Part shown: positions 5,335 through 29,107 of the stretch, in pieces | Numbering within the stretch: position 1 is the stretch's first letter | Layout: every line of letters starts with the position of its first letter | Origin: a bacterium | GTDB taxonomy: Bacteria; Arandabacterota; Arandabacteria; Arandabacterales; Arandabacteraceae | DNA: 64,000 nucleotides | Direction: 5' to 3' | NCBI GenBank assembly: GCA_029933125.1 | Contig: JAOZOU010000009.1 | Location: 10,194-74,193 of the forward strand | Made by a program: the position numbers and the translations under genes | Notes under the pieces: generated by a model | Databases searched by the model: none | The model's input: the letters and a program-made list of their open reading frames with translations, nothing else | What the model was told of the DNA's origin: nothing

Positions 5335-5341
5335 TACTGAC

Positions 5342-10237: not shown

Positions 10238-10243
10238 GCCCTC

Positions 10244-10383
10244 GGGGTCGGAGCTAAAAATCGGCAAATCCCCCCAATTGGGGTCGGAGCTAAAAATCTG
10301 CATTCCAGCTTCTTTGGCACGGTCTGTGCAATTGCAAGTTAGGTGCCAGCCACGCCTTCGTGCACGTTTTTAGCTCCGACCCC
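10244..10383. repeat. repeat element locus 1: two direct copies of GGGGTCGGAGCTAAAAA core plus one inverted copy
   Basis: Core at 10244-10260 and 10280-10297 (direct), inverted copy 10365-10383; same core recurs at 43543-43732 and 53976-54066. Confidence 0.8.
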
Positions 10384-10410
10384 GGAGGCCGGGTGTGGTA
10401 TGATGGAGGT

Positions 10411-12121: not shown

Positions 12122-15100
12122 TCAGCGCATAAGAACCACCTTAGCAGTCGCCGACTGCCTGCCAGATGAGATTCTTACAAAATAGATACCAGCCGAGACG
12201 GCTCTCTCATTCCTTGACATACCGCTCCAGACCAAGGAGTGCATACCAGGTGATAGATGCCCTGCCTCGCTCTCCCACACCAGCCTACCTGCAACGTCAT
12301 AAACAGAGACCCGTACATCACCAAAGGTCGGAATTGTAAAAGATATCTGGAAATTCTCGTGGCTCGGGTTGGGTACAATTTTGGCGATGCCAAAGGCGAG
12401 GTGCTGGCCCCCACCTTGAGAAACACCCGCTATGTCAACATCTCCCTCCCACCGCCGTGCATATATCTCAGGATTACCATCCCTCTCATCCCGCCACACA
12501 ACGGCTATCTTGCCTAAGGCATCGGCAGCCACAGAAGGCAAAGCACAAGAGCCGCTCTCGGATGACAGCCTCGCCTCCCTTGACCAAATCGAAGTGTACG
12601 ACTTGTAGTAGATTGCCTCAGCCTCGTCATAGGTGTCCTCCCAGACCAAATGAAAGCGGCCCCTTCCATCACCACAGATATTGGGCGTCGTGCCAGTACC
12701 AAAAATTTCACCCAGGTCAGTCCACGACCCGCCTTCGTAAAGCATCCCCCGTATGGATGTATCACTCCCATCTTGCTCCTCCCACACCACCATTACCCTG
12801 CCACCGTCGTCGCAGCCAACCGATGGACGCGTCGAGAGACCCGGAGTCGCTACCAGCCTAGTAGAACTGCTCCACACCGAACCATCCCAGACCTTGTAGT
12901 AAATCTCACTATTGCCATCACGTGTATCTTCCCAGACCACGTAGACATTGCCAAGGCTGTCAGCTGCCCCAGCCGGATAGCGTGACACTGCCCCATCGCT
13001 GGTGAGCCTTTCTTCAGTCCACCCTAAACCATCCCATCTAACGCAGTATATCTCCCAGTTGCCATCACGACTGTCCTGGAAGAATATGAATGGCTCATCA
13101 CCCGCACTCACTGCCAACGAAGGATAGTCTGACACACCACTATTGCTGGTCAGTCTTCGATTTGCCTCCCAGATTAAGCCATCATAGTGCTTATAGTATA
13201 TCTCCCAGTTGCCATCACGACTGTCCTTCCAGCACAAGTGGAGCTCGTCACCCACCCCACCACAAATTGAAGGGAGCTGGGATGAAGCCGCATCATAAGT
13301 CAGCCGCGTCTCCGGTAGCCAGCTCACTCCATTCCACTTGCGGTAGTAAATCTCATAATTGCCATCACGATTGTCATACCAGACAACATGCACGTGACCA
13401 CTTGCCTCCCTTACAACACACTTACTGTTGTTCCACGAAGTTGTCGATGAGTAAGTATCGAAGCTTACGCGCTCTTCTTCACCCCAAGGTGTGTCAATGA
13501 TGAGAATGGCGTCAGCGAGGAACGCCTCCTGCAGGTCAGAATCGGAATTCTTAAGCCAGACCTGCCAGTAGCCCGGCTCTGCCCCGCAGAGATCAAAATC
13601 ACATTTGATGTAAGAGTCCGAAAGCCTTGTCACATTCTGTGCAAAAATCGGTTCCTCACCCACCCGCTCGAGCCAGACTGAGGGATTGCCAGCAAAACCG
13701 GTCCCTGTTAGAACGGCATTTACAGGGAAGACGTTGCCAGCTTCCGTTGGGGAAAACCTCGCTATAGCTGCACGTGTCTCACTAGCTGACCAATGCTTAT
13801 AGTATATCTCACTGTTGCCGCCGCCTTGATCATGGCACCAGACGACGTGCACATTCCCGACCGCATCAGTATCCAGGCGACCGGCTTCATCGCGGGTCGA
13901 ATTATATGTCAACCGCTCATCCGGCCACCATCTCACGCCGTCGTACCGCTTGTAATATATCTCATAGTTACCATCACGGCCATCTTGCCACACCACATGC
14001 ACATTACCACTTCCATCAGTCGCTACTGACGGAGCCTCAGAACTGCCTGAAGCATTCGTCAGTCGCTCATCTGGCCCCCAACTCACACCGTCATACCGCT
14101 TGTAATAAATCTCATAGTTACCATCACGGCCATCTTGCCACACCACATGCACATTACCACTTCCATCAGTCGCTACTGATGGATGCCAGGAGTCGCCTGA
14201 AGCATCAGTCAAACGCTCATCTGCTCCCCAACTCACACCATCATAAATTTTATGGTATATCTCCCAGTTACCGTCACGATAATCTTGCCACACAACATGG
14301 ATGTTCCCACTAGTGTCCACGGTCACCTCAGGCATTCGAGATTCGCCTGAAGCAACAGTCAATCGCTCATCCGGCCCCCAACTTGCACCATCATAAACTT
14401 TGTGGTATATCTCCCAGTTACCATCACGGCTCTCTTCCCATACAACGTGCTGATTGCCATCGCTATCCACGGCAACCGCAGCCCACTCAGAATTGCCAGG
14501 ATCGTTCGTCAACCGCTCATCCGGCCCCCAACTTACACCATCATAAACTTTGTGGTATATCTCCCAGTTGCCGTCGCGATAATCCTTCCAGAAAACGTGT
14601 AAGTTTCCGCCGAGGTCTCTTAGTAGCCGTGGATGGAACGAGCTCCCCGAAGCATTAGTTAAGCGTTCATCTGGCCCCCAGGTCACGCCATCATAGCGCT
14701 TATAGTATATCTCTCCATTCCCATCTCGCTCATCCCACCACACAACATGGAGACAGACCCCATCGACGAGTACCCGAGGAGATTGGGAACTGTCATTAGC
14801 ATAGGTAAGCTGCTCTTCAGGTAGCCACTCCCCAGCTGGCATAACATAGAAACCGAAGGGGAGCGTGTCTGGCTGTCCATCTGGATTCTTGACAATAACA
14901 TCCCAGTAGCCAGGGGCAGCGTTCTCGAGATCTGCGGTACAGGTTAGCCTGTCAGAACTCTCAACGCGGATGTTATGACACACGATCCGGGGTTCACCAG
15001 GCTTTTCAAGCCAGACAGAATCAGGAAAGAAAAAGCCAGAACCCGATAGATTTGTGATGCGCACTAATTCATGGCTGTAGCCTTCATCGGGTTCAATCGA

Positions 15101-16279
15101 GTTAATCTGCGGCTTCTCAAGTGTGCCGTTATACCATTCCTTCCAGTATAGCTCCCAGCCGCCATCACGGTTGTCATACCACGCAACATGCACGTTCCCA
15201 CTTTCATCCGTCACTACTGATGGATACCAGGAGTCGCCCGAAGCAACAGTCAAACGCTCATCCGGTCCCCAACTCGCCCCATCATACCGCTTATAATAAA
15301 TCTCATAGTTACCATCACGATTGTCATACCACACCACATGCACGTTACCGCCGGTGTCCGTTCCTACAGAAGGGCTATATGAGTCTCCTGAGGCATTTGT
15401 CAACCGCTCATCTGGTCCCCAGCTCATACCATCATACCGCTTGTAGTATATCTCATAGTTGCCATCACGATTGTCATGCCACACAACATGCACATTACCA
15501 CTTCCATCAGTCGCCACTGATGGATACCGAGAGTAGCCCGAAGCAACTGTCAATCGCTCATCAGAACCCCAACTCATACCATCATACCGCTTGTAATAAA
15601 TCTCATAGTCGCCATCACGATTGTCATGCCACACAACATGCACATTACCACTTCCATCAGTCGCTACTGATGGATACCGAGAGTAGCCCGAAGCAACTGT
15701 CAATCGCTCATCAGAACCCCAACTCACACCATCATACCGCTTATAGTATATCTCTGAGTCGCCATCCCGATGATCCCACCACACCACATGTACATTCCCG
15801 CTCATATCGACTGCGACCGAGGGATCCTGGGAGAGCCCAGCTGAGTTCGTCAACCGCTCATCTGCCCCCCAACTAACACCGTCATATCGCTTATAGTAAA
15901 TCTCCCAGTCGCCATCACGATAGTCCTCCCACACGATATGAACATTACCACTTACGTCCGCAGCCATCCACGCACCCCTAGACTGTCCACCTGCATTCGT
16001 CAAGCGTTCAACAGGGCTCCAACCCGTCCCATCGTAACGCTTGTAGTAAATCTCATCGCTGCCATCGCGAGTGTCCTCCCACACCACATGCACGTTACCA
16101 AACAAGTCCGTGGTCACACACCTACCCATTTCAGCCGAAACCTGGGAAGTGGGTGGATCAGTCAGACGCCAGTCAAAGAACCAGCCAGCAGCTGCCCGAC
16201 TTGCAAAGCACAGACCCAGTGCTATCAAGATCGCAAAAGACCAACCGAACGCTTCGCTTGTGGGTCTATCACGACGCAT
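12122..16279 (-). CDS. giant secreted repeat protein (about 28 x ~50-aa propeller-like repeats, two Ig-like inserts) with T9SS/FlgD-like C-terminal sorting domain
   Basis: Signal peptide MRRDRPTSEAFGWSFAILIALGLCFASRAAAG; repeat unit GNVHVVWxDxRDGNxEIYYKRYDGxSWGxDERLT; C-terminal 85 aa match the T9SS CTD pattern (VPNPSHENFQISF...VYDVAGRLV...GIYFVRI). Start 16279 chosen for signal peptide and SD spacing. Confidence 0.8.
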   Translation of the reverse strand: MRRDRPTSEAFGWSFAILIALGLCFASRAAAGWFFDWRLTDPPTSQVSAEMGRCVTTDLFGNVHVVWEDTRDGSDEIYYKRYDGTGWSPVERLTNAGGQSRGAWMAADVSGNVHIVWEDYRDGDWEIYYKRYDGVSWGADERLTNSAGLSQDPSVAVDMSGNVHVVWWDHRDGDSEIYYKRYDGVSWGSDERLTVASGYSRYPSVATDGSGNVHVVWHDNRDGDYEIYYKRYDGMSWGSDERLTVASGYSRYPSVATDGSGNVHVVWHDNRDGNYEIYYKRYDGMSWGPDERLTNASGDSYSPSVGTDTGGNVHVVWYDNRDGNYEIYYKRYDGASWGPDERLTVASGDSWYPSVVTDESGNVHVAWYDNRDGGWELYWKEWYNGTLEKPQINSIEPDEGYSHELVRITNLSGSGFFFPDSVWLEKPGEPRIVCHNIRVESSDRLTCTADLENAAPGYWDVIVKNPDGQPDTLPFGFYVMPAGEWLPEEQLTYANDSSQSPRVLVDGVCLHVVWWDERDGNGEIYYKRYDGVTWGPDERLTNASGSSFHPRLLRDLGGNLHVFWKDYRDGNWEIYHKVYDGVSWGPDERLTNDPGNSEWAAVAVDSDGNQHVVWEESRDGNWEIYHKVYDGASWGPDERLTVASGESRMPEVTVDTSGNIHVVWQDYRDGNWEIYHKIYDGVSWGADERLTDASGDSWHPSVATDGSGNVHVVWQDGRDGNYEIYYKRYDGVSWGPDERLTNASGSSEAPSVATDGSGNVHVVWQDGRDGNYEIYYKRYDGVRWWPDERLTYNSTRDEAGRLDTDAVGNVHVVWCHDQGGGNSEIYYKHWSASETRAAIARFSPTEAGNVFPVNAVLTGTGFAGNPSVWLERVGEEPIFAQNVTRLSDSYIKCDFDLCGAEPGYWQVWLKNSDSDLQEAFLADAILIIDTPWGEEERVSFDTYSSTTSWNNSKCVVREASGHVHVVWYDNRDGNYEIYYRKWNGVSWLPETRLTYDAASSQLPSICGGVGDELHLCWKDSRDGNWEIYYKHYDGLIWEANRRLTSNSGVSDYPSLAVSAGDEPFIFFQDSRDGNWEIYCVRWDGLGWTEERLTSDGAVSRYPAGAADSLGNVYVVWEDTRDGNSEIYYKVWDGSVWSSSTRLVATPGLSTRPSVGCDDGGRVMVVWEEQDGSDTSIRGMLYEGGSWTDLGEIFGTGTTPNICGDGRGRFHLVWEDTYDEAEAIYYKSYTSIWSREARLSSESGSCALPSVAADALGKIAVVWRDERDGNPEIYARRWEGDVDIAGVSQGGGQHLAFGIAKIVPNPSHENFQISFTIPTFGDVRVSVYDVAGRLVWESEAGHLSPGMHSLVWSGMSRNERAVSAGIYFVRISSGRQSATAKVVLMR

Positions 16280-16690
16280 AGCCATTCCCCCTTTTGAAAG
16301 CCTTTGAAGCATTCTACTCAAAAACATAGCGGCCAACCCGCAGCCACGAACAAAAACCCGGAGAGACGCTCACAATGTCACAGCAGCCCAGCCTGCGCCA
16401 ACATTGGAACCAATTAGCCATTATAGCACACAAGATGCGCTATTTCAACACCTTCTCGTACTTTTGCGGGGAATGGGTGGGGAGAACCCGCTTTCGATGA
16501 AACTGTTTTACATCCTCCACTTCGTTTGATAAAATGGGCGGCCGGCAAGAGAATCTTAACCAAAGGCTGCTGATTGTTCTGCGGGTCTGTCCGAGAGTGC
16601 AGGAAGGGCTAGGGATAGCAGCTACCCAAATCCCTTCCTCACGGTTGATGGGAAATATCGCTTCTGCCTTTCAATTGGGGGTGATTTTCC

Positions 16691-19153
16691 ATGGCGCGCC
16701 TTGACTGTCCCCGGTTGGTGCTGCCACTTGCGGTTCTTATTTTCACATTGGTGTCCCCTCCAACGCCTGTGCTGGGTGATTGGCTCTTTAGCACGAGACA
16801 GGATTTTGCGGTGGGTAGCAGACCTTCACAAGCTGCCCTCCATGACTTCAATAATGATTTCATACTCGACGCTGTCGTCGCCAACAGTGAGAGTGACAAC
16901 GTATCCATCCTCATTGGAAGAGGTGATGGGACATTTACCAGAGCGGAGGACGTAGACGTGGGGGATTACCCTGCCTCCATTTTGGCAACCGATGTTGACC
17001 TTGATCAGGATTGCGACCTTGTCGTAGCCAACACGTGGAGTAATACCATCTCGGTCCTCCTTGGTCATGGCGACGGAACATTCACCCCATCAGCGGAGAT
17101 TCTTGTTGGTGGAGGACCTTGTTTCGTCATCGGTGGCGACTTTAACTGCGACTGGATCCCTGACTTTGCTGTTGCCAACATGTACAGTGATGATATCTCC
17201 GTCGTGTTAGGCAATGGGGATGGAACATTTGATGCCCCGATACGCTTTCCTGTTGGCGGGTACCCGAACTCAATGGTTTCGGGCATGCTGAATGCAGACG
17301 GGTTTTCCGACATCGCTGTAACATGCTATTACGACAACAAAGTCTCAATCCTCTTCGGAAACGGTGATGGCACATTCACAAAGGCAGCCGACCATCCTGT
17401 TGACCACCCAAACGAAGTCTCAACTGGAGACTTTGATTCGGACGGCGATCTTGATCTTGTAGTGGTCAGAGTGTCTTCGACAAACCAATCGGTCCTCGTC
17501 TTCCTAAATGACGGCAATGGAACATTTCAGCCACCGGTTGCATATGAGGCTTACAACTACGGGATCTCAGTTGCTGTATCAGATGTTAATCTTGACGGAC
17601 ATCAGGACTTGGCAGTCGGTGATTTCAACGAGTCATTCTACATTCTCCTGGGAAACGGGGATGGCACTTTCCAGTCGTCGATTTACCACGATGCTGGGAA
17701 CTCCGTCGTCTGCATCCGAGTGGGAGACCTGGACAGAGACGGGCTACCGGATATCCTCGCTGTCAATAGGTATGAGGATACGGTCTCAAGCATCATAGGA
17801 AACGGAGACGGCACGTTCAAAGTCGCACCGTGGTACATGTGTGATTCCGGACTCTGCTCCGTGGCACTAGGCTATCTCAACGCCGATTCATTTCTCGACA
17901 TCGTTACTGGTAATGCTGACGCCCGCAATGTTTCAGTGCTCATTGCAAACGGTGATGCCACCTTTATGCCTGCTGTCAGCTACTTGATTGGGCTCGGTCT
18001 GAGCTGGGTAGTCATCGACGATTTTGGCGGCGACGCAGTTATGGATCTGGCTGTCTCCAGTGATATGCGCTATGTCGCTGTACTTATGGGAAACGGTGAT
18101 GGCACCTTCCAGGATCCAGTGACCTACTGGGTAAAGGGAGGTGCTGCGCATCTCGCCTCCGGCGATGTGGATGGCGACGGCGATGCAGATCTAGCTGTCG
18201 CAATCAAAGACAGTGGCGAGGTAGCGCTCCTACTTAACAACGGTGATGGCACCTTCGCTCCGGCAGTTGGCTACGCGGCTGATGGTGGCACCAATTGTGT
18301 CTGCCTCGATGACTTTGATTGTGACGGTGATCTAGATATCGCTACGGCCAATTGCTATGGGGATAATGTCTCTATCCTGCTGGGCAATGGGGACGGGACC
18401 TTCGCTGCAGCCGTGAACTACCCTGCATCCTTTGGTCCTTGCAGCGTGGTCTCAAACTATCTCGATGGAGATTCTCTTCCAGACCTTGCGGTCGTAAACG
18501 AATATAGCGACAATGTCTCAATACTACTCGGCAACGGTGACGGGACGTTTGACCTGGCCCGAAACTACCCTGTAGCCAACTCTCCTCTCTCACTTGCTAC
18601 AGGAGACTTCAATCGTGACTGCGTACCAGATCTTCTGGTCGTGCATCAGTTCCACTACTTTGTCTCTGTCCTTCTCGGAAACAGAGACGGTACTCTCAGG
18701 GAGCCAGTACTGTATGGCGCTCATATTTTCCCGCGGGCTGCAGCAGTCGGTGACCTAAACGCCGATGGGTCGGATGATGCTGTTGTTGCCAATCAGGGCT
18801 GCCTCAGCGTTTCGGTCCTTCTGGGGGAAATTTGCGCTGGTGTACCTATCGATGGAGACAGGAAACAAGCAGACTCAATTTGCCAGCTGAGGGTCGCGCC
18901 AAATCCATGCACTGGCAGTGCCGCGATTTGGTTCGACATTCCGTCAGAGCAATCTCTAAGAAGTGTCGCTGTCTATGATGTTTCAGGTGCTCTGGTCCGG
19001 CAATGGGTGTTGGAAGCGACGATAAGTAATGGAAACTGTGTTATCTGGGACTGCAGAGACAATTACGGAAGGCGTGTCGCACCGGGCGTTTACTTCGCAA
19101 GTATCCAAAGCGAAGGCGTGTTGGCCACACGCAAGCTCATAGTACTTCGCTAG
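16691..19153 (+). CDS. FG-GAP/VCBS repeat protein with T9SS/FlgD-like C-terminal sorting domain
   Basis: 820 aa; signal peptide; about 13 repeats with D-x-N-x-D-G-x-x-D and GNGDGTF motifs; C-terminal APNPCTGSAAIWFDIP...VYDVSGALV...GVYFASI sorting domain. Confidence 0.8.
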   Translation: MARLDCPRLVLPLAVLIFTLVSPPTPVLGDWLFSTRQDFAVGSRPSQAALHDFNNDFILDAVVANSESDNVSILIGRGDGTFTRAEDVDVGDYPASILATDVDLDQDCDLVVANTWSNTISVLLGHGDGTFTPSAEILVGGGPCFVIGGDFNCDWIPDFAVANMYSDDISVVLGNGDGTFDAPIRFPVGGYPNSMVSGMLNADGFSDIAVTCYYDNKVSILFGNGDGTFTKAADHPVDHPNEVSTGDFDSDGDLDLVVVRVSSTNQSVLVFLNDGNGTFQPPVAYEAYNYGISVAVSDVNLDGHQDLAVGDFNESFYILLGNGDGTFQSSIYHDAGNSVVCIRVGDLDRDGLPDILAVNRYEDTVSSIIGNGDGTFKVAPWYMCDSGLCSVALGYLNADSFLDIVTGNADARNVSVLIANGDATFMPAVSYLIGLGLSWVVIDDFGGDAVMDLAVSSDMRYVAVLMGNGDGTFQDPVTYWVKGGAAHLASGDVDGDGDADLAVAIKDSGEVALLLNNGDGTFAPAVGYAADGGTNCVCLDDFDCDGDLDIATANCYGDNVSILLGNGDGTFAAAVNYPASFGPCSVVSNYLDGDSLPDLAVVNEYSDNVSILLGNGDGTFDLARNYPVANSPLSLATGDFNRDCVPDLLVVHQFHYFVSVLLGNRDGTLREPVLYGAHIFPRAAAVGDLNADGSDDAVVANQGCLSVSVLLGEICAGVPIDGDRKQADSICQLRVAPNPCTGSAAIWFDIPSEQSLRSVAVYDVSGALVRQWVLEATISNGNCVIWDCRDNYGRRVAPGVYFASIQSEGVLATRKLIVLR

Positions 19154-19404: not shown

Positions 19405-20646
19405 CTAGTCCGCCGGGTTCACGAGGCGCCCCATGAAGAGGATGGTGCCGGTTGTGTTCTCCTTTATAAGGAAAATGAAAGGATGATCGGCTCGAAATGT
19501 CTTGGCTGGCGTAGGTGCCATCGCGAGCGCCATGGTAACCCCTGTTGCCGCAGCTGCCTCTGTCCCACGCTCATTCACATCGACATATGCTTTGTGCACA
19601 ACAGCTGAGATGAAAAGATCACGCTTGCCTGTCATACCTGAGAAATCCGCTCTTGTTGGCTCGAATGCATCCTTCATGCCAAGTTCTTCAAGAGCTCCAT
19701 CAACCCGAAACTTAGTCTCGAGCTTAAAACGCGGAAGGCTTATGTCCACCCGCTCAGGCGCAAGACGCCCAAGCCAGGCGGAAAGGGAATCAGGGGCAAG
19801 CCCCGCCTCGAGCCCTTTGAGCCCCTCAACCTTCCTTGGAAGCAGAATCACCATTGAAAGATCTCCACCCTTGTAGGGGAGCTCAAGTGCCTGAAAGTCA
19901 TCTCTCTCAAAATAGTGAAAGTGTCCTTCCTGATGCATCATGGGAATGGTGACCGTCGTTGTGTCATCTACATGGAAGGGCTCATCCGAGGTGCGCTTCT
20001 CCTTGAAAGGATGCTCCCAGTTGCCCAGAAAATAGATGGCGTTGGTAAGCACAAGCCTTACGTCGGGGGTAAGAAGCCCCCTGCCTATGAGCTCCTGTAT
20101 CTTGCCCTCAGTCTTCTCAGACACCCACTCATTTATGCGCTCCCTTGCACCAGCGGCATCATTGGCAAAATCAACCTGAAAAAGGCCTGCCCCATAGTAT
20201 TTTTTGGTTAAACCTATGAACTCAGCCTCAAACTCATAGCCCTCCTGTGCCCAAAGTGCATTCGCCACACTGAGCTTGAAGTTGCCTTTCCTACCAAGGG
20301 CATTGAGTGAATCTGTAAGCTCCCCAAATGCCTTGTGGATACCCTCACCACCTACCCCACCAAGCCCACCAAAATGCAATGCCCGAGCCATCTCCTCAGC
20401 AGTCTTACCCCGCGCTCCTGCATATGTCATCGCAAGCGCACTTGAGATGCTGTATGGGGAAAAGAATAGATTTCCTTCCCCAAGTTGCTGGTAAAGATCA
20501 AGCGCAAAAGCATTGTTTCTTGCCGCAAGTGTGTCCATCGTAACCTCTTGTGTTGGCTTTGCCTGGTCGCTTCCACAGCTAGATGCTCCCATCAGCGACA
20601 TTCCGATAAGCATTACCGCTATGAATCGCCAATCTCGCAGTCCCAT
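19405..20646 (-). CDS. serpin (serine protease inhibitor) with signal peptide
   Basis: Serpin hinge and reactive-centre-loop signature GTEAAAATGVTMALAMAP...HPFIFLI...ILFMGRLVNP plus N-terminal FSPYSISSALAMTYAGARG; ATG 20646 preceded by AGGAGG; track start 20790 likely too long. Confidence 0.85.
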   Translation of the reverse strand: MGLRDWRFIAVMLIGMSLMGASSCGSDQAKPTQEVTMDTLAARNNAFALDLYQQLGEGNLFFSPYSISSALAMTYAGARGKTAEEMARALHFGGLGGVGGEGIHKAFGELTDSLNALGRKGNFKLSVANALWAQEGYEFEAEFIGLTKKYYGAGLFQVDFANDAAGARERINEWVSEKTEGKIQELIGRGLLTPDVRLVLTNAIYFLGNWEHPFKEKRTSDEPFHVDDTTTVTIPMMHQEGHFHYFERDDFQALELPYKGGDLSMVILLPRKVEGLKGLEAGLAPDSLSAWLGRLAPERVDISLPRFKLETKFRVDGALEELGMKDAFEPTRADFSGMTGKRDLFISAVVHKAYVDVNERGTEAAAATGVTMALAMAPTPAKTFRADHPFIFLIKENTTGTILFMGRLVNPAD

Positions 20647-20865
20647 CCTTCTCCTCCTTCCTATGTACCCAACCCCCATATTATGATAACCACTCTCCAA
20701 GGTCAAAACCAAACCTTCGGGGGAGATTCCCTCGAAGACCACATACCAGACGCGTGAAATGCATCGCTCGAGGGTATGCTGAGATCTCATGTGTGGTTCC
20801 TTCAGCCCAGATGGAACCTTCTACGCCAATTTGAGAATTTTAGAGTGGAGAGAAGGAGGGTGAGA

Positions 20866-22065
20866 ATGAAACACAAGAATCCTGATCGCTATACCAAAAT
20901 TGCATTCTGCCTGACAGTCACTCTTGTTGCAGGGCTCGTCGGGGCTTTGAGTTTTCTCGGTGACCATGCTGTCGCCTATGCACTTGAGAATTCGAAAGCC
21001 TCATTTGGTACCAGCTACACTACTACCTGCCTTTTTGAAGGCTTCGAAGATGGTTGCCGCCTCAACCCCCCAATCACCACTGCCCGAGATATCAATCTCC
21101 TTGGCACATCCCATAGTCACATTCGTTCACACGAGCTGGTTGGGTTGGTGTCTTCCTCTTCATATGCGGCAGGCTCAGAAGGCTTTGTCCCCCAGCTGGA
21201 ATCGGGTTCCACCGCTTCCTCTGCTGCTCAACTAAGGCTAGCCTCTGCCGAACAATCCTCAATTTCGCCTGCGAATCTGCGTGCCGCCAAAGCCACCTAC
21301 ATCGTGTGGCCAACTCACCTGGATTTTGGGACCATAAGCACTTACAGCTACGCCGATAGGACATTCATGATAAAGAACAAGGGATCGACGAAACTCAGCG
21401 GTACAGTTCAGGCATCGCTACCATTTGTGGTTATAGAAGATAATCACTTCGATCTGGATCCAGGGCAGTGGAAGCATTTCACAATCAGGTTTCTCCCTAT
21501 CCTGCCTGGGAGTTCCACCTGCATGGTGACGCTTGGAGATAGCGTAGATACTAAAGTAATCTGCACCGGCAAGGGGAAACCTCGACCGTTCTCTGGCATA
21601 CTCTACCTCGAGTTCTTAGCATCCCTTCTCGCTGCTCACGATGGGGCTCTTATCTTCTCCAGTAATGCTTTTGTGCAGGCTGATTCTTGCAAAATAGAGG
21701 AAAGGCTTGCCAGATACGCAAAGGCTTGCGACGCCGCCAAGTGGATCTATGACGCCAGATCCATGTATAGAGATGATCATCATACACCGACTACTCCCAC
21801 ATGGCACAGCGACTTCCCAACATGGCACAACGACTTCCCAACATGGGGTGGACATTCAACCCATCAGAGTGGCTCAAATACCTCTCACATCAGCATTGGA
21901 GAGATGAACTGGACACATCATGTGCCCTCAGCGATAGTTGCGCCACTCCCTGTCGCAACCCCACCTTCCTGGCATGCCACGATACCAACCGCTGGTATTT
22001 CCTCCTCGATGTCCCATACATCGGATAGACGTCACCATATATCGCACCCACGTGTCCACCACTAG
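20866..22065 (+). CDS. secreted protein with Ig-like (ASH / choice-of-anchor-D-like) domain and His/Trp-rich C-terminal tail
   Basis: Signal anchor MKHKNPDRYTKIAFCLTVTLVAGLVGALSFLG; central motif YIVWPTHLDFGTISTYSYADRTFMIKNKGSTKLSG; C-terminal low-complexity tail with about 15 His and repeated TWH/PTWH. ATG 20866 preceded by AGGAGGG. Confidence 0.45.
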   Translation: MKHKNPDRYTKIAFCLTVTLVAGLVGALSFLGDHAVAYALENSKASFGTSYTTTCLFEGFEDGCRLNPPITTARDINLLGTSHSHIRSHELVGLVSSSSYAAGSEGFVPQLESGSTASSAAQLRLASAEQSSISPANLRAAKATYIVWPTHLDFGTISTYSYADRTFMIKNKGSTKLSGTVQASLPFVVIEDNHFDLDPGQWKHFTIRFLPILPGSSTCMVTLGDSVDTKVICTGKGKPRPFSGILYLEFLASLLAAHDGALIFSSNAFVQADSCKIEERLARYAKACDAAKWIYDARSMYRDDHHTPTTPTWHSDFPTWHNDFPTWGGHSTHQSGSNTSHISIGEMNWTHHVPSAIVAPLPVATPPSWHATIPTAGISSSMSHTSDRRHHISHPRVHH

Positions 22066-22154
22066 CCATGCCAAACAGGAATTGTAAGTCTGCAGGTGAG
22101 CTGATCTCTTGACCGTAACTTCCCCTAGTGGTATGAGTTCAAATCAAAGGTGCC

Positions 22155-23360
22155 ATGAGGAAAAGATCGCTTCTTTCGACAATTCTCTTGATCACGATAG
22201 GTGGCTCTGGGCTATTGTTAGCCCCCCTTGCCCGAGCTGCCGCTGGCTGGACTCCTGCAATCCGGCTGACTAATAGCGATGGCTCCCTAACGCTTTCGGG
22301 TCCCCCCGGACTTAAGCAGATAGCTGCAGGCCCTGACGGGAGGATACATGTAGTTTGGGCTGATAACCGAGATGGGATGTATCACATCTATTACAAGTGC
22401 TTTGATGGAAAAGCTTGGAGCAAAGACGAATGCATAAGCCAGGGCTATGGCTTAGACCCCAGTATCTCGCTCCTTCCTCACGGTCGGATACTGGTAGCGT
22501 GGTACTGGTTCGGCTACGACACCTTTGCTCGGATCTTCGACGGGTCAAGATGGCAGAACGAGACCAAGCTCAGCGATTGCACACCGATCAATAGCACCTG
22601 GCCTTCTACGGTGACCGACGCTGCAGGACGTGCCCACGCATTCTGGCCAGTCTCAAGCTTCTGTGAGGCGTTCCTAATGCATCGTGTCTATGATGGCCAA
22701 AGGTGGCTTCCCTGTGACACGATACCAGGCACCACAGGTAACCCCATGCTGACGGCTGCTGCGTGTGATAGCAAGGGAAATCTTCATCTCGTGTGGACGG
22801 ATGGAAGAGATGGCAACTTTGAAATCTACTACACGACGTATGATGGCTCGCGGTGGGGTGCTTTTCAAAGACTCACGAGTGACCCAGCAGCATCAGAGCT
22901 TCCGGATGTTGCAATCTCCTCAAAGGATGTCATCTATGTGGTTTGGCAGGACTCTCGTACAGGAGTCCCTGAGGTCTATCTTAAGACATTCAACGGCAAA
23001 TGGTCTCCTGATCAGAGACTTTCAGCAGACGACGGCAGACTATCGGGCAATCCCAAGATAGCTATAGATTCAATGGACAGGGTACACATCGTTTGGGGAG
23101 AGCAAAGGCATGAGAAGATCAAGTTCCATGACATCTATTACCGCAGGTCGCGTCCCAGGGGTAAGCTATGGTCGCCCCCTGTAAGACTGACAAGTGATGC
23201 AGCAATCCCGAAATACTACTCCCTCTGTGTTGACTCTGCTGGTAACGCCTATGTGGTTTGGATGGATTTCCGCAATTTCAGGTGGGATATCTATTTCAAA
23301 ACTCAGTGTAAATCCAACGACCCTGCCTTCTGGACAAGGGGGCTCACCCAGGCCAATTAA
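22155..23360 (+). CDS. secreted propeller-repeat protein, paralogous to the repeats of the 12122-16279 protein, no sorting domain
   Basis: 401 aa; signal peptide; repeats RIHVVWADNRDGMYHIYYKCFDGKAWS, LHLVWTDGRDGNFEIYYTTYDGSRWG, IYVVWQDSRTGVPEVYLKTFNGKWS share the giant protein's repeat motif. Confidence 0.7.
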   Translation: MRKRSLLSTILLITIGGSGLLLAPLARAAAGWTPAIRLTNSDGSLTLSGPPGLKQIAAGPDGRIHVVWADNRDGMYHIYYKCFDGKAWSKDECISQGYGLDPSISLLPHGRILVAWYWFGYDTFARIFDGSRWQNETKLSDCTPINSTWPSTVTDAAGRAHAFWPVSSFCEAFLMHRVYDGQRWLPCDTIPGTTGNPMLTAAACDSKGNLHLVWTDGRDGNFEIYYTTYDGSRWGAFQRLTSDPAASELPDVAISSKDVIYVVWQDSRTGVPEVYLKTFNGKWSPDQRLSADDGRLSGNPKIAIDSMDRVHIVWGEQRHEKIKFHDIYYRRSRPRGKLWSPPVRLTSDAAIPKYYSLCVDSAGNAYVVWMDFRNFRWDIYFKTQCKSNDPAFWTRGLTQAN

Positions 23361-23387
23361 TCTTCAACTGCGAAGGATATGGGTCAC

Positions 23388-26300
23388 CTACCTCCAGTCA
23401 CCAGAGGAAACAAAAGCAGCCCATCGTACCGGATGATCTATCATTCCATGCGAGCGCAGTTCTTTGAGCACTTTGAGCTCAACCGCGTTAAGGGTGAATG
23501 CAATATTCTCTGGGGGCGTGCTGTAGATGGCACTACAAACTTCGGCAGCAAGTCTGTCAGACACTGGCCACATTGCACCGATTATTGTGCGCGCCCCAGC
23601 CAGCCGAAAGGCACGCACGGGGCCATAAACGCCTTCGGCATCTTCAAGCTCGCCAGTTGCGGTTTCGCACCCCGAAAGCACCACGAGATCGGTTCCTCTG
23701 AGATCAAGGGCAAGGATCTCCTCAGAGGTAAGTGTGCCATCATCAATCATTGGGTTCTCAAAGCCTCTACCATGGAGATTTGCTCGAGCCAGAAAAAGCC
23801 CTGATAAGACCAGGGGATTGAGACTATCAGGGTTGATACTTACCCTATCTGCTGAAGGGTAGATCTTCCCCGGCGAGCAAGATGCCAGGTGATAACCATG
23901 GGTTGCAAGGTGAAGCACGCGCTTCCCAGGAGCATCAGCTTTTACCCTTTCCTCAGTTGCGTCTTTGCCGACATAGATATACGCGGGCTCACCTGTGACC
24001 TCGCGCCACCTATGAGCTACAGCTTCTACCTCACGGCGGCTCTCAGGGAGAGGTGGAACAACAATGTTGAACCGTTCCTTGCAGGGAATCGATGTCTGAC
24101 CATGCTCAAGTAAGTCAAGCTCAGGCTTGAGGGCACCCCTCTCAGGTAAGGCATCGTAGTCGGGGGCACCAATTGCCAGAAGCCCCTTACCCCGCTTAGG
24201 ATTTTTCCCAAGCGCAAGGAGGTCGCGAGCAGCTGCGATGTAGTGTACGGGATAATGTTCGATAAGATACTTGCCATCACCTGCTATCAAGCCTGCAAAG
24301 GAAATGCGCGAAATCTCAGCATCAGAGCAAATGATCACAAGATCCGAACCCTCGAGGTGACCTTCAATCGGCTCAACAAGGATCTCATAGAGCCTTCTTC
24401 CAAGCCTTGTGTAGTATTCCATATCCTCAAGTGTGGGACCTGACCTGGAATCAGCTAACTTCCTCATGTGGTGGCAATAAAGGCGGACAGCAAAGTCGAT
24501 GTCAGCAGCATCGCCCAGCTGTACAATACGCACCTCGGAATCACTGGTTAGCACGAGCGCAAGGTATCTGAAAAAGTAGCCGTTAGGCTCAACCCAGTAC
24601 TGATACTTGAAATACTCAACAACTGTAGTTCTCATAGGAAATCTTCTCAGGGCACTGAGCACCTTGGCTACACTGGTGTCAAGTACCTGCGCTGCGTCGG
24701 CATGATCAGCTATCAAACTGGCAAGTCTTCGCTCAAGGCGCTCCTTTCGCTTTCTGAGATTTTTGAGCATTGTCTCTAAGTCTTTGCTGCTGGGGATCTC
24801 AGAAGTGTAGAGCACCGAGATTTGCTGGTGAATGAGGCTAAGGGAATCCACAACCGCAGTTGCATAATCTGTCGTTCCACGTAAGGCGTGTCTTTGAGCA
24901 AGGAGATCAGTGACACCGCCTTTGGACTGCAATACGGCATCTGCAACCTCGAGCGTGGCATGCTCTTCCCTTTCGGGGAGATCGAAGTAAGTAGTAAGTA
25001 GCCTATCCACACAGGCGAGCTGAACCTCTCGATACTTAAGAGCCTCTCTTTCCGGCATTAGCAGAATCTGATCCGCTACGGTTTGCCATCCGAGCTCGAG
25101 TGTCTCCAGGGCAGCGTCCCAGGCCGCCCGGACGTCACCTCTCATCCTATGAAATCTGCTGAGATCCAGGAGATTCATGGTTGCATCTGGACCAAGCGAA
25201 CCGAGTGCTTTCTGCATAGCAATTGCCTTCTCATACATTGGCATTGCTTCACCATAGCGCCGCTCATCTCGATAGCAATTTGCGAGGGTCATCAAAATGG
25301 AAACAATTGCCGGGCTCGCCGTCTCAGCCTCCGTCTCGCAGGAAGCTATTGCTGAAGCACACAGGCTTTCAGCCCTGCTATAGTCATGGATGTAGCGGTA
25401 GACAGTTGCAAGGGCTGCGATTGCCCGTAGGAGAGCGGGATGCTGAGGACTAAAGGGCTTATTTAAAATTGCAATAGCACGTTCCAGGTTGTCTATAGCC
25501 ATTCTAATGTACTTTGTGTGGTTATTGCTACGCAGCTCGTAGTTCAGGGATCCGAGCTCGGCAAGTACCATACCAATGCCTGGATGATTCGGTCCAAGAC
25601 CTACCTCACCTCTCCCGAGAGCATCCTTGAGCACAACATGTGCCTGATCAAACCGCTGGGATGCAACGAGCACTCTTGCAAAACCGAGCATTGCCTCAAG
25701 ACGGTGGGTATTCATAGCAGGTGACGTGCGATCAAAAATGGCAAGAGCCTCTTCATAAAGCCTTTCAGCCTCGACAAGGTTGGCTTGACAATATCTGAGG
25801 CGTGCCATATTGGTGATTGTTGAGGCAACGAAAGGGTGCCAGTAACCAAGGCTGATGCCGAGCAATCTTCTGGCCTCAAGCAAGTGGTATTCTGCCGAAA
25901 GATAATCCAGTTTGTAAGTATCTATCAACCCTTGCAGGTTCAGGGTATGCGCTAATGTAACACTGTCGGCCCTGTCCGATATCTCAAGAAGGAAGCGTGA
26001 CTCATCAAGCCAATCTTGAGCCCTGGTATAGTAACCCTGGGCAACCGCGAGATGAGCAAGAGCGAGATCGATGTGTGCTTCCCAGCAAGGGTCGGGGTAG
26101 TTCTGAGAAAGATAGCGAGCCTGAGATAGATAGCCTTGCGCTTCAGCATAGTGTCCCAGCTCAGTTCCTATCTCACCAAGGTAGGTAAGAAGTGGCAGGG
26201 CCTGCTCGCGCAATTCCGAAGGGGGAGTTCGGGTGATTAATCGCTCCAGCTTCCCGTACAGGCTTGAAAGTTCTTCGTGACCACCATACTGGAGATAGAA

Positions 26301-26594
26301 CGCAGCCAAGACTGCAATCTGTGAAGGGAGGGATTGAAATTCCCTTCCCTCACCAATCGACCTCAATGTCCTTGCTAGCTTGGCCTGGGCATCACGGTAA
26401 CTTTCATACTTTAAGAGTCGAGTCGATCCGCATTGGGAATCTACAACAACAATCGGCAGGTAGCCCCCACCAACACTTGACGGAGACCCTCCAGCAAGCC
26501 TAATTAACCCAAGAGTGCACACTGCTGCGAGGAGGACCTGATTGACTTTCGATGAATCCATTCCTCCCTGCCTTTGCTTTTCGAGAAAACGCAT
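23388..26594 (-). CDS. TPR-repeat protein with C-terminal CHAT (caspase-like) peptidase domain, predicted secreted
   Basis: CHAT catalytic dyad context VLHLATHGYH (His) and LVVLSGCETATGE (Cys) at C-terminus; multiple TPR-like helical repeats centrally; signal-peptide-like MRFLEKQRQGGMDSSKVNQVLLAAVCTLGL. The first 140-150 aa of the track ORF would overlap the divergent sigma-factor region and are rejected; alternative start ATG 26561. Confidence 0.75.
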   Translation of the reverse strand: MRFLEKQRQGGMDSSKVNQVLLAAVCTLGLIRLAGGSPSSVGGGYLPIVVVDSQCGSTRLLKYESYRDAQAKLARTLRSIGEGREFQSLPSQIAVLAAFYLQYGGHEELSSLYGKLERLITRTPPSELREQALPLLTYLGEIGTELGHYAEAQGYLSQARYLSQNYPDPCWEAHIDLALAHLAVAQGYYTRAQDWLDESRFLLEISDRADSVTLAHTLNLQGLIDTYKLDYLSAEYHLLEARRLLGISLGYWHPFVASTITNMARLRYCQANLVEAERLYEEALAIFDRTSPAMNTHRLEAMLGFARVLVASQRFDQAHVVLKDALGRGEVGLGPNHPGIGMVLAELGSLNYELRSNNHTKYIRMAIDNLERAIAILNKPFSPQHPALLRAIAALATVYRYIHDYSRAESLCASAIASCETEAETASPAIVSILMTLANCYRDERRYGEAMPMYEKAIAMQKALGSLGPDATMNLLDLSRFHRMRGDVRAAWDAALETLELGWQTVADQILLMPEREALKYREVQLACVDRLLTTYFDLPEREEHATLEVADAVLQSKGGVTDLLAQRHALRGTTDYATAVVDSLSLIHQQISVLYTSEIPSSKDLETMLKNLRKRKERLERRLASLIADHADAAQVLDTSVAKVLSALRRFPMRTTVVEYFKYQYWVEPNGYFFRYLALVLTSDSEVRIVQLGDAADIDFAVRLYCHHMRKLADSRSGPTLEDMEYYTRLGRRLYEILVEPIEGHLEGSDLVIICSDAEISRISFAGLIAGDGKYLIEHYPVHYIAAARDLLALGKNPKRGKGLLAIGAPDYDALPERGALKPELDLLEHGQTSIPCKERFNIVVPPLPESRREVEAVAHRWREVTGEPAYIYVGKDATEERVKADAPGKRVLHLATHGYHLASCSPGKIYPSADRVSINPDSLNPLVLSGLFLARANLHGRGFENPMIDDGTLTSEEILALDLRGTDLVVLSGCETATGELEDAEGVYGPVRAFRLAGARTIIGAMWPVSDRLAAEVCSAIYSTPPENIAFTLNAVELKVLKELRSHGMIDHPVRWAAFVSSGDWR

Positions 26595-26834
26595 ACCATG
26601 CACTATTTGGGATGTCAAGCCTGCCAACTCGGATGTGCCCGTCCCAACGCCATAAACAATATTGCACTCCATGCGATTAAGCTTGAAGATATGGCGTTCG
26701 TGAGGTAACATTTGCAGTAGCACACGGTTCCTGCTCGGATCTGCTACGAAAGAGAGCTGGCGGAGGGCAGACTCATCGACTTCTCGCTCGAAGATAAGGA
26801 CACCCGGGAAACCGTCAGGCAATGGATTCAGCCT

Positions 26835-27317
26835 GTGGTAAGAAGTCCAAGGTGGTATCAGCGCATCAAGCACGAAGAGCAGGATATTTACAATGAAGTT
26901 ATGTTGAGATTCCTGATTGCATGTCAGAAAGGCCGCGTCGATACTGCAAGAGATCCCAGGCCTTATGTTCAGAAAATTGCCTTTCACGTCTGCGTTGACT
27001 GGATCAGGCGTAACCATCGAGAGGTCCCTTTCGACGACATCACCGAAGAGATTAGCAGGAAGCTTTTCAGGCGTGAGCCCAGTATTCTCGAAAAGCTCAC
27101 ACGTGATGAAACGGTTGAGGTTCTAGTGGAGCTGATTGGAACCTTGCCTGAGAAATGCCGAAATATATTACGGATGACATTTTATGAAGAAAAATCAGAG
27201 AAGGCGATTGCAGATGCTCTTGGTGTACCCGTTGGAACCGTAAAATCTAGAAAGTCGAGATGCCTCGACAAGCTCAGGCATCTCTTGAAAGGAAAAGACA
27301 ATCAAGCTATGGATTAG
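26835..27317 (+). CDS. ECF-type RNA polymerase sigma factor (sigma-24 family), N-terminally short
   Basis: Region 2 (EQDIYNEVMLRFL...IAFHVCVDWIRRN) and region 4 (AIADALGVPVGTVKSRKSRCLDKLR) motifs; first canonical start is GTG 26835 after in-frame stop at 26718. Confidence 0.75.
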   Translation: MVRSPRWYQRIKHEEQDIYNEVMLRFLIACQKGRVDTARDPRPYVQKIAFHVCVDWIRRNHREVPFDDITEEISRKLFRREPSILEKLTRDETVEVLVELIGTLPEKCRNILRMTFYEEKSEKAIADALGVPVGTVKSRKSRCLDKLRHLLKGKDNQAMD

Positions 27318-27393
27318 AAAACGATCGGAATTGAGGATCGATGCTTTGTAGAAGGAGCATTCATGGCGTGAGAATCTGAAGTGAGGTTGGGAT

Positions 27394-28476
27394 GTGTATG
27401 CGCAGGGTAGCAGGCATGTAGCAGATTTACTTGACGATTACATCAATAGAAAACTCAATGATTCTCAATCCAAAGTGGTCGAGGCCCATGTAGCTACCTG
27501 TAAGGCCTGTGCCGTTGAGCTTGCCTTCAGGCTGGCAGTAGCCAAAGCCACGAAAAGGTACTATGCGAGGCAATCTCTCGACCACGTGGATACCGCCATT
27601 CTGGCAGATCTTGCCCTGGGAGGGCATAATCTCAGCCCCGAATCGAAGAACAAAGCTCTCGAGCATATCGCCTCATGCCCCCAGTGCCGGAAACACTATG
27701 AGACAGCAAAGGGTGTTGCCGATGATCTTAATCTGGAGCCGATCCCGTCTCCCAGTGAGTCCCATCCCGGGCCTGACCTTGCGAAGGAATCTGAGATGCG
27801 GCGTGGCCTCATGGTAAGAAACTTCTTTTTGTTTCTATTCGGAAGATGGCGTTATGCTGCCGTAGCCTTTGCCGCTGCTTTCTTAACCTTTGCAATCATC
27901 GAACTAAGCAAGCCATCGTATCCTCCAGGGATAACATCCAGCCCTTCCCTTGGGGAAGGCTCCTCACAGCCCTTTGCAACATCACAGGTCCGAGGAGTAA
28001 AGTCCCCGCCTGAGAAGGCTCTCTCTGAGACAGGTGCGGCTACTTCTCCTACCTCAACGATCGGAGCCACCTTGCCCCCAAGAGTGCTATACTTTGATGC
28101 GGGAACAAAGGTGGGACCCGACGAAGAACTTGACTTAGCCAGACTGGAGGTAACAGCTCGGGTGGTTACACTCGCAAGGCAAGAGAATCTGCTTCTTATA
28201 ATCGAACGCCCACGAGAGCTTGTAGGCAAGACCATCGGCTGTGTTCAGATCTACAAAGTCGAAGGCTCGGCAGCCATCTTAGAAACTGAGTGGAGTAAGT
28301 TTGCGATTCCAAGGGAAGGGAAAATCCCCCTGATGATACCCTCAGAAATTCTTCAACCCGGCACTTACGCAATCTCAGTCCAGCCTACCGAACCAGACCA
28401 GACTGCAACCTTCTTCCCTGTCAAGGTGAACCTGGAGTCGGCATATTCTTCCGAACAGAAGGAATCCTCAAAGTAA
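27394..28476 (+). CDS. anti-sigma factor, zf-HC2 type, single-pass membrane protein
   Basis: N-terminal H-x3-C-x2-C motif (EAHVATCKAC) plus second Cys pair (CPQCRKH); one TM helix (AVAFAAAFLTFAIIEL); periplasmic C-terminal domain; GTG start 76 bp downstream of the ECF sigma gene. Confidence 0.6.
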   Translation: MYAQGSRHVADLLDDYINRKLNDSQSKVVEAHVATCKACAVELAFRLAVAKATKRYYARQSLDHVDTAILADLALGGHNLSPESKNKALEHIASCPQCRKHYETAKGVADDLNLEPIPSPSESHPGPDLAKESEMRRGLMVRNFFLFLFGRWRYAAVAFAAAFLTFAIIELSKPSYPPGITSSPSLGEGSSQPFATSQVRGVKSPPEKALSETGAATSPTSTIGATLPPRVLYFDAGTKVGPDEELDLARLEVTARVVTLARQENLLLIIERPRELVGKTIGCVQIYKVEGSAAILETEWSKFAIPREGKIPLMIPSEILQPGTYAISVQPTEPDQTATFFPVKVNLESAYSSEQKESSK

Positions 28477-29107
28477 GTTCAATTGTCTCAGGTTTCTCAA
28501 TCCGCTTTAGAGTGGTAACGAAGCCTGTGATGACACCAGTTAGTGACTTTTGCACAAAGTCATTCATAGCCACTGGCTTCCCATTGACGATAAGATTTAT
28601 ATGGCCCCCTTTGGGCTTAAGGATTCCCCGCTTGAGAAGAAATTCCCCGAGTGCGTCAATTTCGTCAAAACCGAAACTTTCGTGCTCCCCTTGCTGCTTA
28701 GACTCAGTGACAACGGCAACAATCTGACTGAGGCCCTCGGGAGCGCTTTGACCACTCTTTACGAGAATCTTGGGCATCTCCTCCTGCTTGAAGCCCTCAA
28801 TTATCACGAGATCATATATGCCAAGAAACCTCGAGACAGCTTCCTGCCAGTCAAGCGATTCGGGTATGAAGACGAGAGAAACATTTTCGGATACCACAAT
28901 AGAAGCGCGAGCTCCAGCAGCGAGATGCCTTTCTGAATCTGTTGAGCGATTGAGCTTAAGATCTTCAGTCGTGTGTTTTAGCGTCCCCACCCTGAGCCCC
29001 TTCCTGTTAAAGAACCCAACCAGTCCCTCGACTACCCTGGTCTTGCCACTGTCCTTCCAGCCAACTACTCCTATCACTCTTCCCTCAAGCGTGGATAGCA
29101 TCTTCAC
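28421..29107 (-). CDS. MobB-like P-loop protein (molybdopterin-guanine dinucleotide biosynthesis protein B family) with C-terminal extension
   Basis: P-loop VIGVVGWKDSGKT and MobB-like N-terminal 160 aa; extra C-terminal about 70 aa; 3' end overlaps the convergent anti-sigma gene by 56 bp. Confidence 0.55.
   Translation of the reverse strand: MKMLSTLEGRVIGVVGWKDSGKTRVVEGLVGFFNRKGLRVGTLKHTTEDLKLNRSTDSERHLAAGARASIVVSENVSLVFIPESLDWQEAVSRFLGIYDLVIIEGFKQEEMPKILVKSGQSAPEGLSQIVAVVTESKQQGEHESFGFDEIDALGEFLLKRGILKPKGGHINLIVNGKPVAMNDFVQKSLTGVITGFVTTLKRIEKPETIELTLRIPSVRKNMPTPGSP

Follow-up and report, generated by a model that had tools for sequence, protein, structure and literature searches.

Judged from its sequence, the gene at the centre of this analysis is a genuine, full-length serpin of the inhibitory type, whose product is predicted to be made as an exported lipoprotein. 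It is probably an envelope-anchored suicide inhibitor that protects the cell against secreted serine proteases and acts independently of the TPR-CHAT protein encoded nearby. The evidence for this reading comes from the profile and fold comparisons, the reactive-centre loop, the N-terminal signal and the position of the gene in related genomes.

The serpin gene and its product

The serpin gene lies on the minus strand of the window (the whole 64-kb stretch of DNA that was analysed), where the following features belong to it or stand directly before it:

19405..20646, minus strand: serpin coding sequence, 413 amino acids including the signal, stop codon included (ORF, Pfam PF00079, PDB matches, AlphaFold, Foldseek)
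20653..20657, minus strand: Shine-Dalgarno core GGAGG, which precedes the ATG at 20646 by 6 nt (direct sequence reading)
20678..20706, minus strand: candidate sigma-70-like promoter TTGACC-17-TAATAT upstream of the serpin (consensus scan, weak evidence)

The reading frame has its stop at 19405 and remains open as far as 20790. The ATG at 20646 corresponds to Met49 of this longer open frame (20790..19405). The 413-amino-acid reading is preferred to the 461-amino-acid database version (P0001), which looks over-extended, because the GGAGG core stands 6 nt upstream of the ATG and because the start at 20646 coincides with the start of the orthologues in loci L003 and L004. Scans for promoters and terminators around the gene returned site counts that were not above the expectation from shuffled sequence, and therefore no strong claim is made about the serpin transcription unit. 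A scan of the window for tRNA genes found none.

An earlier note, written from the letters of this DNA, had described a full-length serpin and had proposed a profile search for the fold and the P1 residue. That search bears out the description. The 413-amino-acid product matches the Pfam family Serpin PF00079 (MEROPS I4) with an E-value of 4.4e-130 and 434.6 bits, where the cutoff is 27 bits, and the match extends over profile positions 2-370 of 370. NCBIfam gave no serpin model match for the protein. At E<=0.001, 212 distinct PDB serpin sequences were matched, the best being chloropin (8GXV, 8.5e-97), followed by human SERPINB1 (4GA7, 1e-92). The AlphaFold model, for which 47 aligned homologues served as input, has a mean pLDDT of 86.9 and a pTM of 0.84, and its confidence is low only at residues 1-28 (signal and linker) and 362-376 (loop). 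In Foldseek, the model reaches a TM-score of 0.93 to 8GXV and 0.91 to 4GA7, with values of 0.89-0.94 to native serpins and a probability of 1.00. The model and these comparisons place the protein in the serpin fold, with its three beta-sheets, eight to nine helices and exposed loop between s5A and s1C. The classic conserved core positions of serpins are invariant across the 47 homologues. Both motifs to which the earlier note had pointed were found in the translation, namely the canonical hinge GTEAAAATG, as residues 361-369, and the C-terminal FMGRLVNP.

The same note had called such a protein relatively uncommon in bacteria, a view that does not hold. A search for serpin homologues returned at least 8000 clusters, all at E<=1e-30, with genome matches in Planctomycetota, Chloroflexota, Bacteroidota, archaea and others, and a published phylogeny is cited in PMC10090351 as covering about 6000 serpins from all kingdoms.

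The reactive-centre loop

The inhibitory hinge consensus has Glu at P17, Glu, Lys or Arg at P16, Gly at P15, Thr or Ser at P14, and short side chains (Ala, Gly or Ser) at P12-P9. The corresponding segment of the window's serpin is located as follows:

19510..19572, minus strand: reactive-centre loop, P17 Glu359 to P4' Thr379 (alignment; low-confidence segment of the model)

From P17 to P8, the hinge reads ERGTEAAAAT (E359 to T368), with AAAA at P12-P9, and agrees with the consensus at every position. E359 and G361-T368 are invariant across the 47 homologues. A loop incompatible with inhibition had been named in the earlier note as a finding that would speak against its proposal; the fit of the hinge to the inhibitory consensus instead argues for a compatible loop.

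The P1 residue follows from the alignment register. Ala375 (codon 19522-19524) shares its HMMER alignment column with Arg383 of chloropin and Cys344 of SERPINB1. The alignment from hinge to P1 is free of gaps with both proteins, and P1 lies 16 residues past the P17 Glu, which is the length of an inhibitory loop. In this register, P2 is Leu374, P1 is Ala375 and P1' is Met376, and the stretch from P4 to P4' reads M-A-L-A↓M-A-P-T, the arrow marking the P1-P1' bond. That Arg383 is the P1 residue of chloropin was verified on the released peptide by mass spectrometry (PMC10090351). The same stretch from P4 to P4' in the relatives is as follows:

L003: MALA↓MAPT
L004: MALS↓MAPM
P0002: MMLS↓SVPV
P0003: MMLT↓AVPD
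P0004: MMLT↓AMPE
P0013: MKLT↓AVRD

Among the syntenic orthologues, Leu at P2 and Met at P4 are kept, and the residue at P1 is small (A, S or T). The bond that is used may differ from the one given by the register. Because miropin is cleaved at several bonds, including non-canonical ones (bioRxiv 10.1101/2025.09.05.674453), and because the P1 residue of the orthologues varies while the P2 Leu is kept, there is a hint that Leu374-Ala375 may serve as an alternative reactive bond.

From the hinge and the P1 column, which are read directly in the alignment, we infer that the protein is an active inhibitor. The residues around P1 suggest that its targets would be elastase-, alpha-lytic-, subtilisin- or chymotrypsin-like serine endopeptidases, and not trypsin-like enzymes or caspases.

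A different role has to be weighed at this point, in which the protein would not inhibit at all but would act in the envelope as a binding protein or chaperone, like ovalbumin, maspin or Hsp47. Non-inhibitory serpins of this kind exist, and the 64-kb window, among whose ORFs of at least 180 amino acids no serine protease gene was found, offers no target protease. However, the hinge follows the inhibitory consensus in full (P15 Gly, P14 Thr, small residues at P12-P9) and is invariant in the 47 homologues, the loop is as long in the alignment as the loops of inhibitory serpins, and the closest solved bacterial relative, chloropin, is a proven inhibitor. A non-inhibitory function is therefore considered very unlikely.

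Lipoprotein signal and envelope context

The signal peptide that the earlier note had assigned to the serpin is correct, and it can be described more precisely as a lipoprotein signal with a lipobox and Cys24:

20575..20646, minus strand: predicted lipoprotein signal peptide, residues 1-24, lipobox GASS-C with Cys24 (PROSITE-type rule)

The N-terminus, MGLRDWRFIAVMLIGMSLMGASSC, satisfies the PROSITE PS51257-type lipobox rule, and IGMSLMGASSC makes up residues 14-24. At the same place, the closest orthologues known from genomic loci, those of L003 and L004, carry the sequence AVSSC. A strict lipobox is present in 26 of the 121 serpin homologues, and a further 55 have a hydrophobic N-terminus, so that export is the norm in this serpin family. 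No acidic surface-export motif was found after Cys24. While the lipobox itself can be read from the letters, lipid modification at Cys24 is predicted from it.

The window also encodes MlaFED-type proteins and SecDF, and in two large proteins, an 820-amino-acid FG-GAP protein and a 1404-amino-acid repeat protein, T9SS type A sorting domains score above the NCBIfam cutoff and mark both as T9SS cargo. The Mla and SecDF genes, together with these sorting domains, point to a diderm host that possesses a type IX secretion system (T9SS). The named homologues nearest to the window's DnaB (78-83% identity) carry the label Candidatus Eisenbacteria, to which the host is tentatively assigned on these names.

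Conserved position and insertions in the window

In related genomes, the serpin gene is found between two housekeeping genes, which served as synteny anchors and are located in the window as follows:

28421..29107, minus strand: MobB gene (Pfam MobB), immediately upstream of the serpin in relatives
10360..12111, plus strand: NFACT/RqcH-type gene (Pfam NFACT_N and NFACT-R), convergent with the serpin in relatives

In sequence, the closest counterparts of the window's serpin are P0002 (58% identity), P0003 (58-60%), P0004 (56%), P0005/L003 (70%), L004 (73%) and P0013 (53%). MobB adjoins the serpin in L003, L004, L051 and L052, and NFACT adjoins it in L001, L003, L050, L051 and the P0013 contig. 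Six independent relatives, whose serpins are 53-73% identical to that of the window, have the gene directly beside whichever of the two anchors the contig shows. The gaps to MobB or NFACT, where visible, measure only about 20-230 nt, and MobB is encoded on the same strand at a distance of about 20-110 nt.

The wider neighbourhood is the same in the relatives and in the window. One side is formed by YjeF-M20-AIRS-GcpE-MobB, and the other by NFACT, in convergent orientation, followed by YicC-RemA-Gmk-RpoZ-CoaBC-UDG-DnaB-MlaE-ABC-MlaD; in L003, an aldo-keto reductase gene lies within the stretch on the NFACT side. Between the window and L003 or L004, these housekeeping genes show identities of 58-96%. 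From its alignments and synteny, the serpin is a positionally conserved gene of this lineage with a predicted reactive loop that is variable (P1 A, S or T; P2 Leu).

In the window, the two anchors are separated from the serpin by additional DNA. The blastn breakpoints against L003 lie at 28491->20550 and 19415->12107 of the window, across L003 gaps of only about 220 nt. The extra DNA at these junctions amounts to 7.9 kb on the MobB side and 7.3 kb on the NFACT side, and comprises the following blocks and genes:

12122..19153, mixed strands: window-only block between NFACT and serpin, with the 1404-amino-acid repeat protein (minus) and the 820-amino-acid FG-GAP protein (plus); outside the serpin unit
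20776..28476, mixed strands: window-only block between serpin and MobB, with Ig-like, repeat, TPR-CHAT, ECF sigma and anti-sigma genes; outside the serpin unit
23388..27017, minus strand: TPR-CHAT gene (Pfam CHAT)
26835..27317, plus strand: ECF sigma gene (Pfam)
27394..28476, plus strand: zf-HC2 anti-sigma gene (Pfam)

The block on the MobB side also holds the genes of a 429-amino-acid Ig-like membrane protein and a 401-amino-acid repeat protein. The divergent 429-amino-acid ORF has a hydrophobic N-terminal segment. The earlier note had seen two exported proteins next to the serpin, and this is plausible on the grounds of that N-terminus and of the T9SS sorting domains.

The proteins of the blocks have no relatives in 49 serpin loci, save for short stretches of similarity in the shared sorting domains and two weak hits to the sigma factor of the ECF type. 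At the borders of the blocks, neither terminal repeats nor signatures of mobile elements were found, only repeats within protein genes and one weak 27-nt inverted repeat, and the GC content shows no step there. Because the compact arrangement is found in both closer and more distant relatives, the parsimonious reading is that both blocks were inserted in the lineage of the window. Deletion in the relatives was considered as well and rejected on parsimony, since the six relatives share the compact form.

The TPR-CHAT gene and the question of pairing

The CHAT peptidase profile (Pfam PF12770) matches the neighbouring protein with 174.1 bits over positions 2-289 of 289. Its translation shows the His and Cys motifs HLATHG and LSGCET, which are assigned to a catalytic dyad by resemblance. 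From the end of this ORF (23388) to the start of the serpin, the distance is 2742 nt, in agreement with the 2.7 kb given in the earlier note. Most CHAT homologues have signal-like N-terminal segments, and the homology begins near the Met at 26561, giving MDSSKVNQVLLAAVCTLGLIRLAGG; secretion of the CHAT protein, as the note had assumed, is plausible in view of these homologues. An argument by which a cytoplasmic CHAT protein could never meet an exported serpin was dropped for the same reason.

The best CHAT homologue other than the protein itself is only 28% identical, so that it has no close relative. Four genomic contexts of CHAT homologues were examined. In L053, genes for a zf-HC2 anti-sigma factor and an ECF sigma factor are adjacent, and in L055, genes for an ECF sigma factor, a Ser/Thr kinase and the CHAT protein form a run of three; L054 and L056 lack the sigma gene as well as the anti-sigma gene. 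An ECF sigma gene is thus adjacent in two of the four contexts, and a serpin gene was found in none of them. The anti-sigma factor DdvA of M. xanthus has a periplasmic TPR-CHAT domain, which was proposed to be its own site-1 protease, and TPR-CHAT enzymes of craspase target putative anti-sigma factors (PMC11506125). By analogy, the ECF sigma, anti-sigma and TPR-CHAT trio of the window looks like a split version of a DdvA-type module. PADLOC matched neither the serpin nor any protein of this trio.

The serpin and the CHAT protein had been proposed as an extracellular pair of inhibitor and protease. In such a dedicated pair, the serpin would be a cross-class inhibitor that keeps the exported cysteine protease TPR-CHAT, encoded 2.7 kb away, under control. 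In favour of this, an extracytoplasmic location is plausible for both proteins, the motifs HLATHG and LSGCET are kept in the CHAT protein, and there is a precedent in miropin, which inhibits the clan CD gingipain Kgp (bioRxiv 10.1101/2025.09.05.674453). However, the genes belong to separate transcription units in a mosaic of strands, and the six relatives keep the serpin without a CHAT gene in their visible flanks (up to 10 kb). The test for conserved linkage likewise failed: an HMM of the CHAT domain, built from 64 homologues and run on all ORFs of 49 serpin loci (648 kb), recovered only the window's own gene and no CHAT protein in the 49 other loci, while the serpin itself sits between MobB and NFACT in the six relatives. 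The recurrent neighbour of the CHAT gene is instead an ECF sigma gene (in the window, L053 and L055), an arrangement for which DdvA/DdvS and craspase offer precedents. Because synteny indicates that DNA was inserted at either flank of the serpin, the short distance to the CHAT gene is no sign of a functional pairing, and a dedicated pair is very improbable.

A linkage to any other protease gene, which the earlier note would have accepted as well, did not emerge either. Protease families are missing from the 25 that recur most often in a Pfam census of 131 serpin-flanking genes, drawn from 44 more distant loci. The top entries, with three members each, are tRNA synthetases, MutS2, further serpins and TPR proteins. 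Crude regex scans of all loci for the catalytic motifs of S8 (subtilase) and S1 (chymotrypsin) proteases returned nothing, a result that carries little weight.

A more elaborate variant, confined to this genome, would have the lipid-anchored serpin hold the CHAT protein, as a protease of the site-1 type, in check, in the manner of securin and separase, until an external protease titrates the serpin away. This would couple foreign attack to the ECF-sigma-driven expression of T9SS cargo, but we regard it as barely credible.

Proposed role

The reading that we favour remains that of an envelope-anchored suicide inhibitor with no part in the affairs of its TPR-CHAT neighbour. After export by the Sec pathway, the serpin would be lipid-modified at Cys24 and tethered to an envelope membrane. 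Its metastable native fold would display the flexible loop …T-M-A-L-A↓M-A-P-T…, and a serine endopeptidase that accepts Ala375, a small aliphatic residue, or the neighbouring Leu374 at P1 would cleave it. As the cleaved loop inserts into beta-sheet A, the attacking enzyme would be caught in the form of a covalent acyl-enzyme. The outcome is likely to be a general shielding of envelope and surface proteins from secreted proteases, either the cell's own or those of its neighbours; miropin, chloropin and the cellulosomal serpins have had such a role proposed for them. The earlier note had named defence against environmental proteases as its second option, and this is our best guess at the function.

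It is very unlikely that the serpin has its role together with the genes beside which it is conserved, either the MobB gene string or, through NFACT/RqcH, ribosome quality control, instead of in extracytoplasmic protease control: its position between MobB and NFACT is strictly conserved in the six relatives, but it carries a signal for export and lipidation while MobB, GcpE and NFACT are cytoplasmic, the adjacent genes are functionally heterogeneous housekeeping genes, and in the window the link is broken by insertions of 7-8 kb on both sides with the serpin ORF intact.

The finding, by which an uncultured candidate phylum gains a serpin of the inhibitory, lipoprotein type, is of little import beyond annotation, as prokaryotic serpins are already known by the thousands and several have been characterised. 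Its useful outcome is a negative one, namely that the closeness of the CHAT gene should not be taken as functional pairing. The inserted trio of ECF sigma, anti-sigma and TPR-CHAT genes is the more interesting by-product.

Comparison with known systems

Chloropin of Chlorobium limicola (8GXV) is the best solved relative and an experimentally proven suicide inhibitor from a bacterium of the FCB group (PMC10090351). It shares the hinge GTEAAAAT and the loop register with the window's serpin. The two differ at the reactive bond and beyond it: chloropin has Arg at P1, acts on thrombin- and KLK7-like targets, and is modulated by DNA and heparin, whereas the window's serpin has, by alignment, Ala at P1 and Leu at P2, a P' side that is one residue shorter, and a lipoprotein signal.

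Human SERPINB1, the leukocyte elastase inhibitor (4GA7), offers a likeness in the loop, where its F-C↓M aligns with L-A↓M of the window's serpin; in both, P2 is hydrophobic, P1 is small and P1' is Met. In SERPINB1, Cys344 serves elastase-like proteases and Phe343 chymotrypsin-like ones. It is an intracellular eukaryotic protein of clade B without a signal peptide, unlike the window's serpin, and the likeness is one of superfamily and not of orthology.

Going by its description, miropin of Tannerella forsythia resembles the window's serpin, a predicted lipoprotein, in being an envelope-anchored lipoprotein of a diderm with T9SS and in having a small residue, Thr, at the canonical P1. Its proposed function is to keep the proteases of the host and of bacteria away from surface proteins (bioRxiv 10.1101/2025.09.05.674453). 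For miropin, surface exposure, broad specificity and several reactive bonds were established by experiment, whereas the window's serpin is known from its sequence. The potempins of the KLIKK pairs, as outlined in PMC9890683, are outer-membrane lipoprotein inhibitors in a T9SS bacterium and thus of the type predicted for the window's serpin. There, the gene of each potempin is located immediately upstream of that of its protease, whereas the window's serpin has no conserved protease neighbour.

The cellulosomal serpins of Clostridium thermocellum (PinA) and Tk-serpin differ from the window's serpin, for which a lipid anchor is predicted, in being dockerin-anchored or free, and they come from different lineages. 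They are nevertheless thought to guard extracellular assemblies from subtilisin-like proteases, which is the same logic as the one proposed here for the serpin of the window.

Linkage of the serpin gene in relatives

In three loci from relatives, the serpin gene lies behind a MobB gene:

L003, 9266-10951, MobB-serpin pair, same strand
L051, 374-2377, MobB-serpin pair, same strand
L004, 3821-5747, MobB-serpin pair, same strand

MobB comes first in each, the gap to the serpin gene is only about 20-110 nt, and the serpin closes a YjeF-M20-AIRS-GcpE-MobB string. With this arrangement, the exported inhibitor may be co-transcribed with housekeeping genes in these relatives. In the window, a 7.9-kb insertion breaks the link between MobB and the serpin.

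The L003 orthologue (JGI contig, 10001-11226; 70% identical) has the same loop as the window serpin, MALA|MAPT. A frameshift divides this orthologue into a 316-aa and a 92-aa ORF, which makes it a pseudogene unless the assembly is in error here. L004 (serpin at 4575-5747) and L047 (8034-8270) are two contigs of one metagenome-assembled genome, Meg22_1214_Bin_137, and each runs out at residue 400 of the serpin. In L047 the serpin is present only as a C-terminal fragment (residues 322-400), which is preceded by unrelated sequence. Such a pattern points to a broken or chimeric assembly, or else to a partial second copy of the gene.

A 27-nt imperfect inverted repeat (arms at 19105-19131 and 21303-21329, 78% complementary) brackets the window's serpin gene. 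It probably arose by chance, because both arms lie inside ORFs neighbouring the serpin.

Other genes of the window

The serpin gene is accompanied by a divergent ORF and flanked by two proteins sharing one repeat type:

20776-22065, + strand, ORF divergent from the serpin gene
12122-16336, - strand, 1404-aa T9SS cargo protein with tandem 50-aa repeats
22155-23360, + strand, 401-aa repeat protein, across the serpin gene from the cargo protein

The divergent ORF likely starts near 20866 (MKHKNPDRYTK…), downstream of an AGGAGG motif. Its product carries a hydrophobic anchor at the N-terminus, shows weak Ig-like similarity (HYDIN/VesB/TMEM131-like) and ends in a C-terminal tail rich in His, Thr, Pro and Trp, with a 21-nt tandem duplication at 21796-21837; no relative was found in any locus examined. 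The cargo protein comprises about two dozen tandem units (…NVHVVW.D.RDGN.EIYYKRYDG.SWG.DERLT…), seen in the DNA as a 150-nt periodicity. The sole matches of the two repeat proteins are BNR_4 and beta-propeller-like.

Two large ORFs, which adjoin a 607-aa TPR protein and a DUF4159 protein, gave no Pfam match at E<=1e-4:

47671-50991, - strand, 1106-aa ORF
44602-45885, - strand, 427-aa ORF

The TPR-CHAT locus

23388-28476, trio of TPR-CHAT, ECF sigma and zf-HC2 anti-sigma genes
26835-27317, ECF sigma gene, divergent from the TPR-CHAT gene
27394-28476, zf-HC2 anti-sigma gene with a single-pass product, likewise divergent

Met 26561 is the probable start of the TPR-CHAT protein, whose N-terminus is signal-like. 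PADLOC returned no match for the trio. An ECF sigma gene adjoins the CHAT homologue in two of the four contexts examined (L053 and L055). The trio resembles DdvA of M. xanthus, an anti-sigma factor whose TPR-CHAT domain is periplasmic, but in split form.
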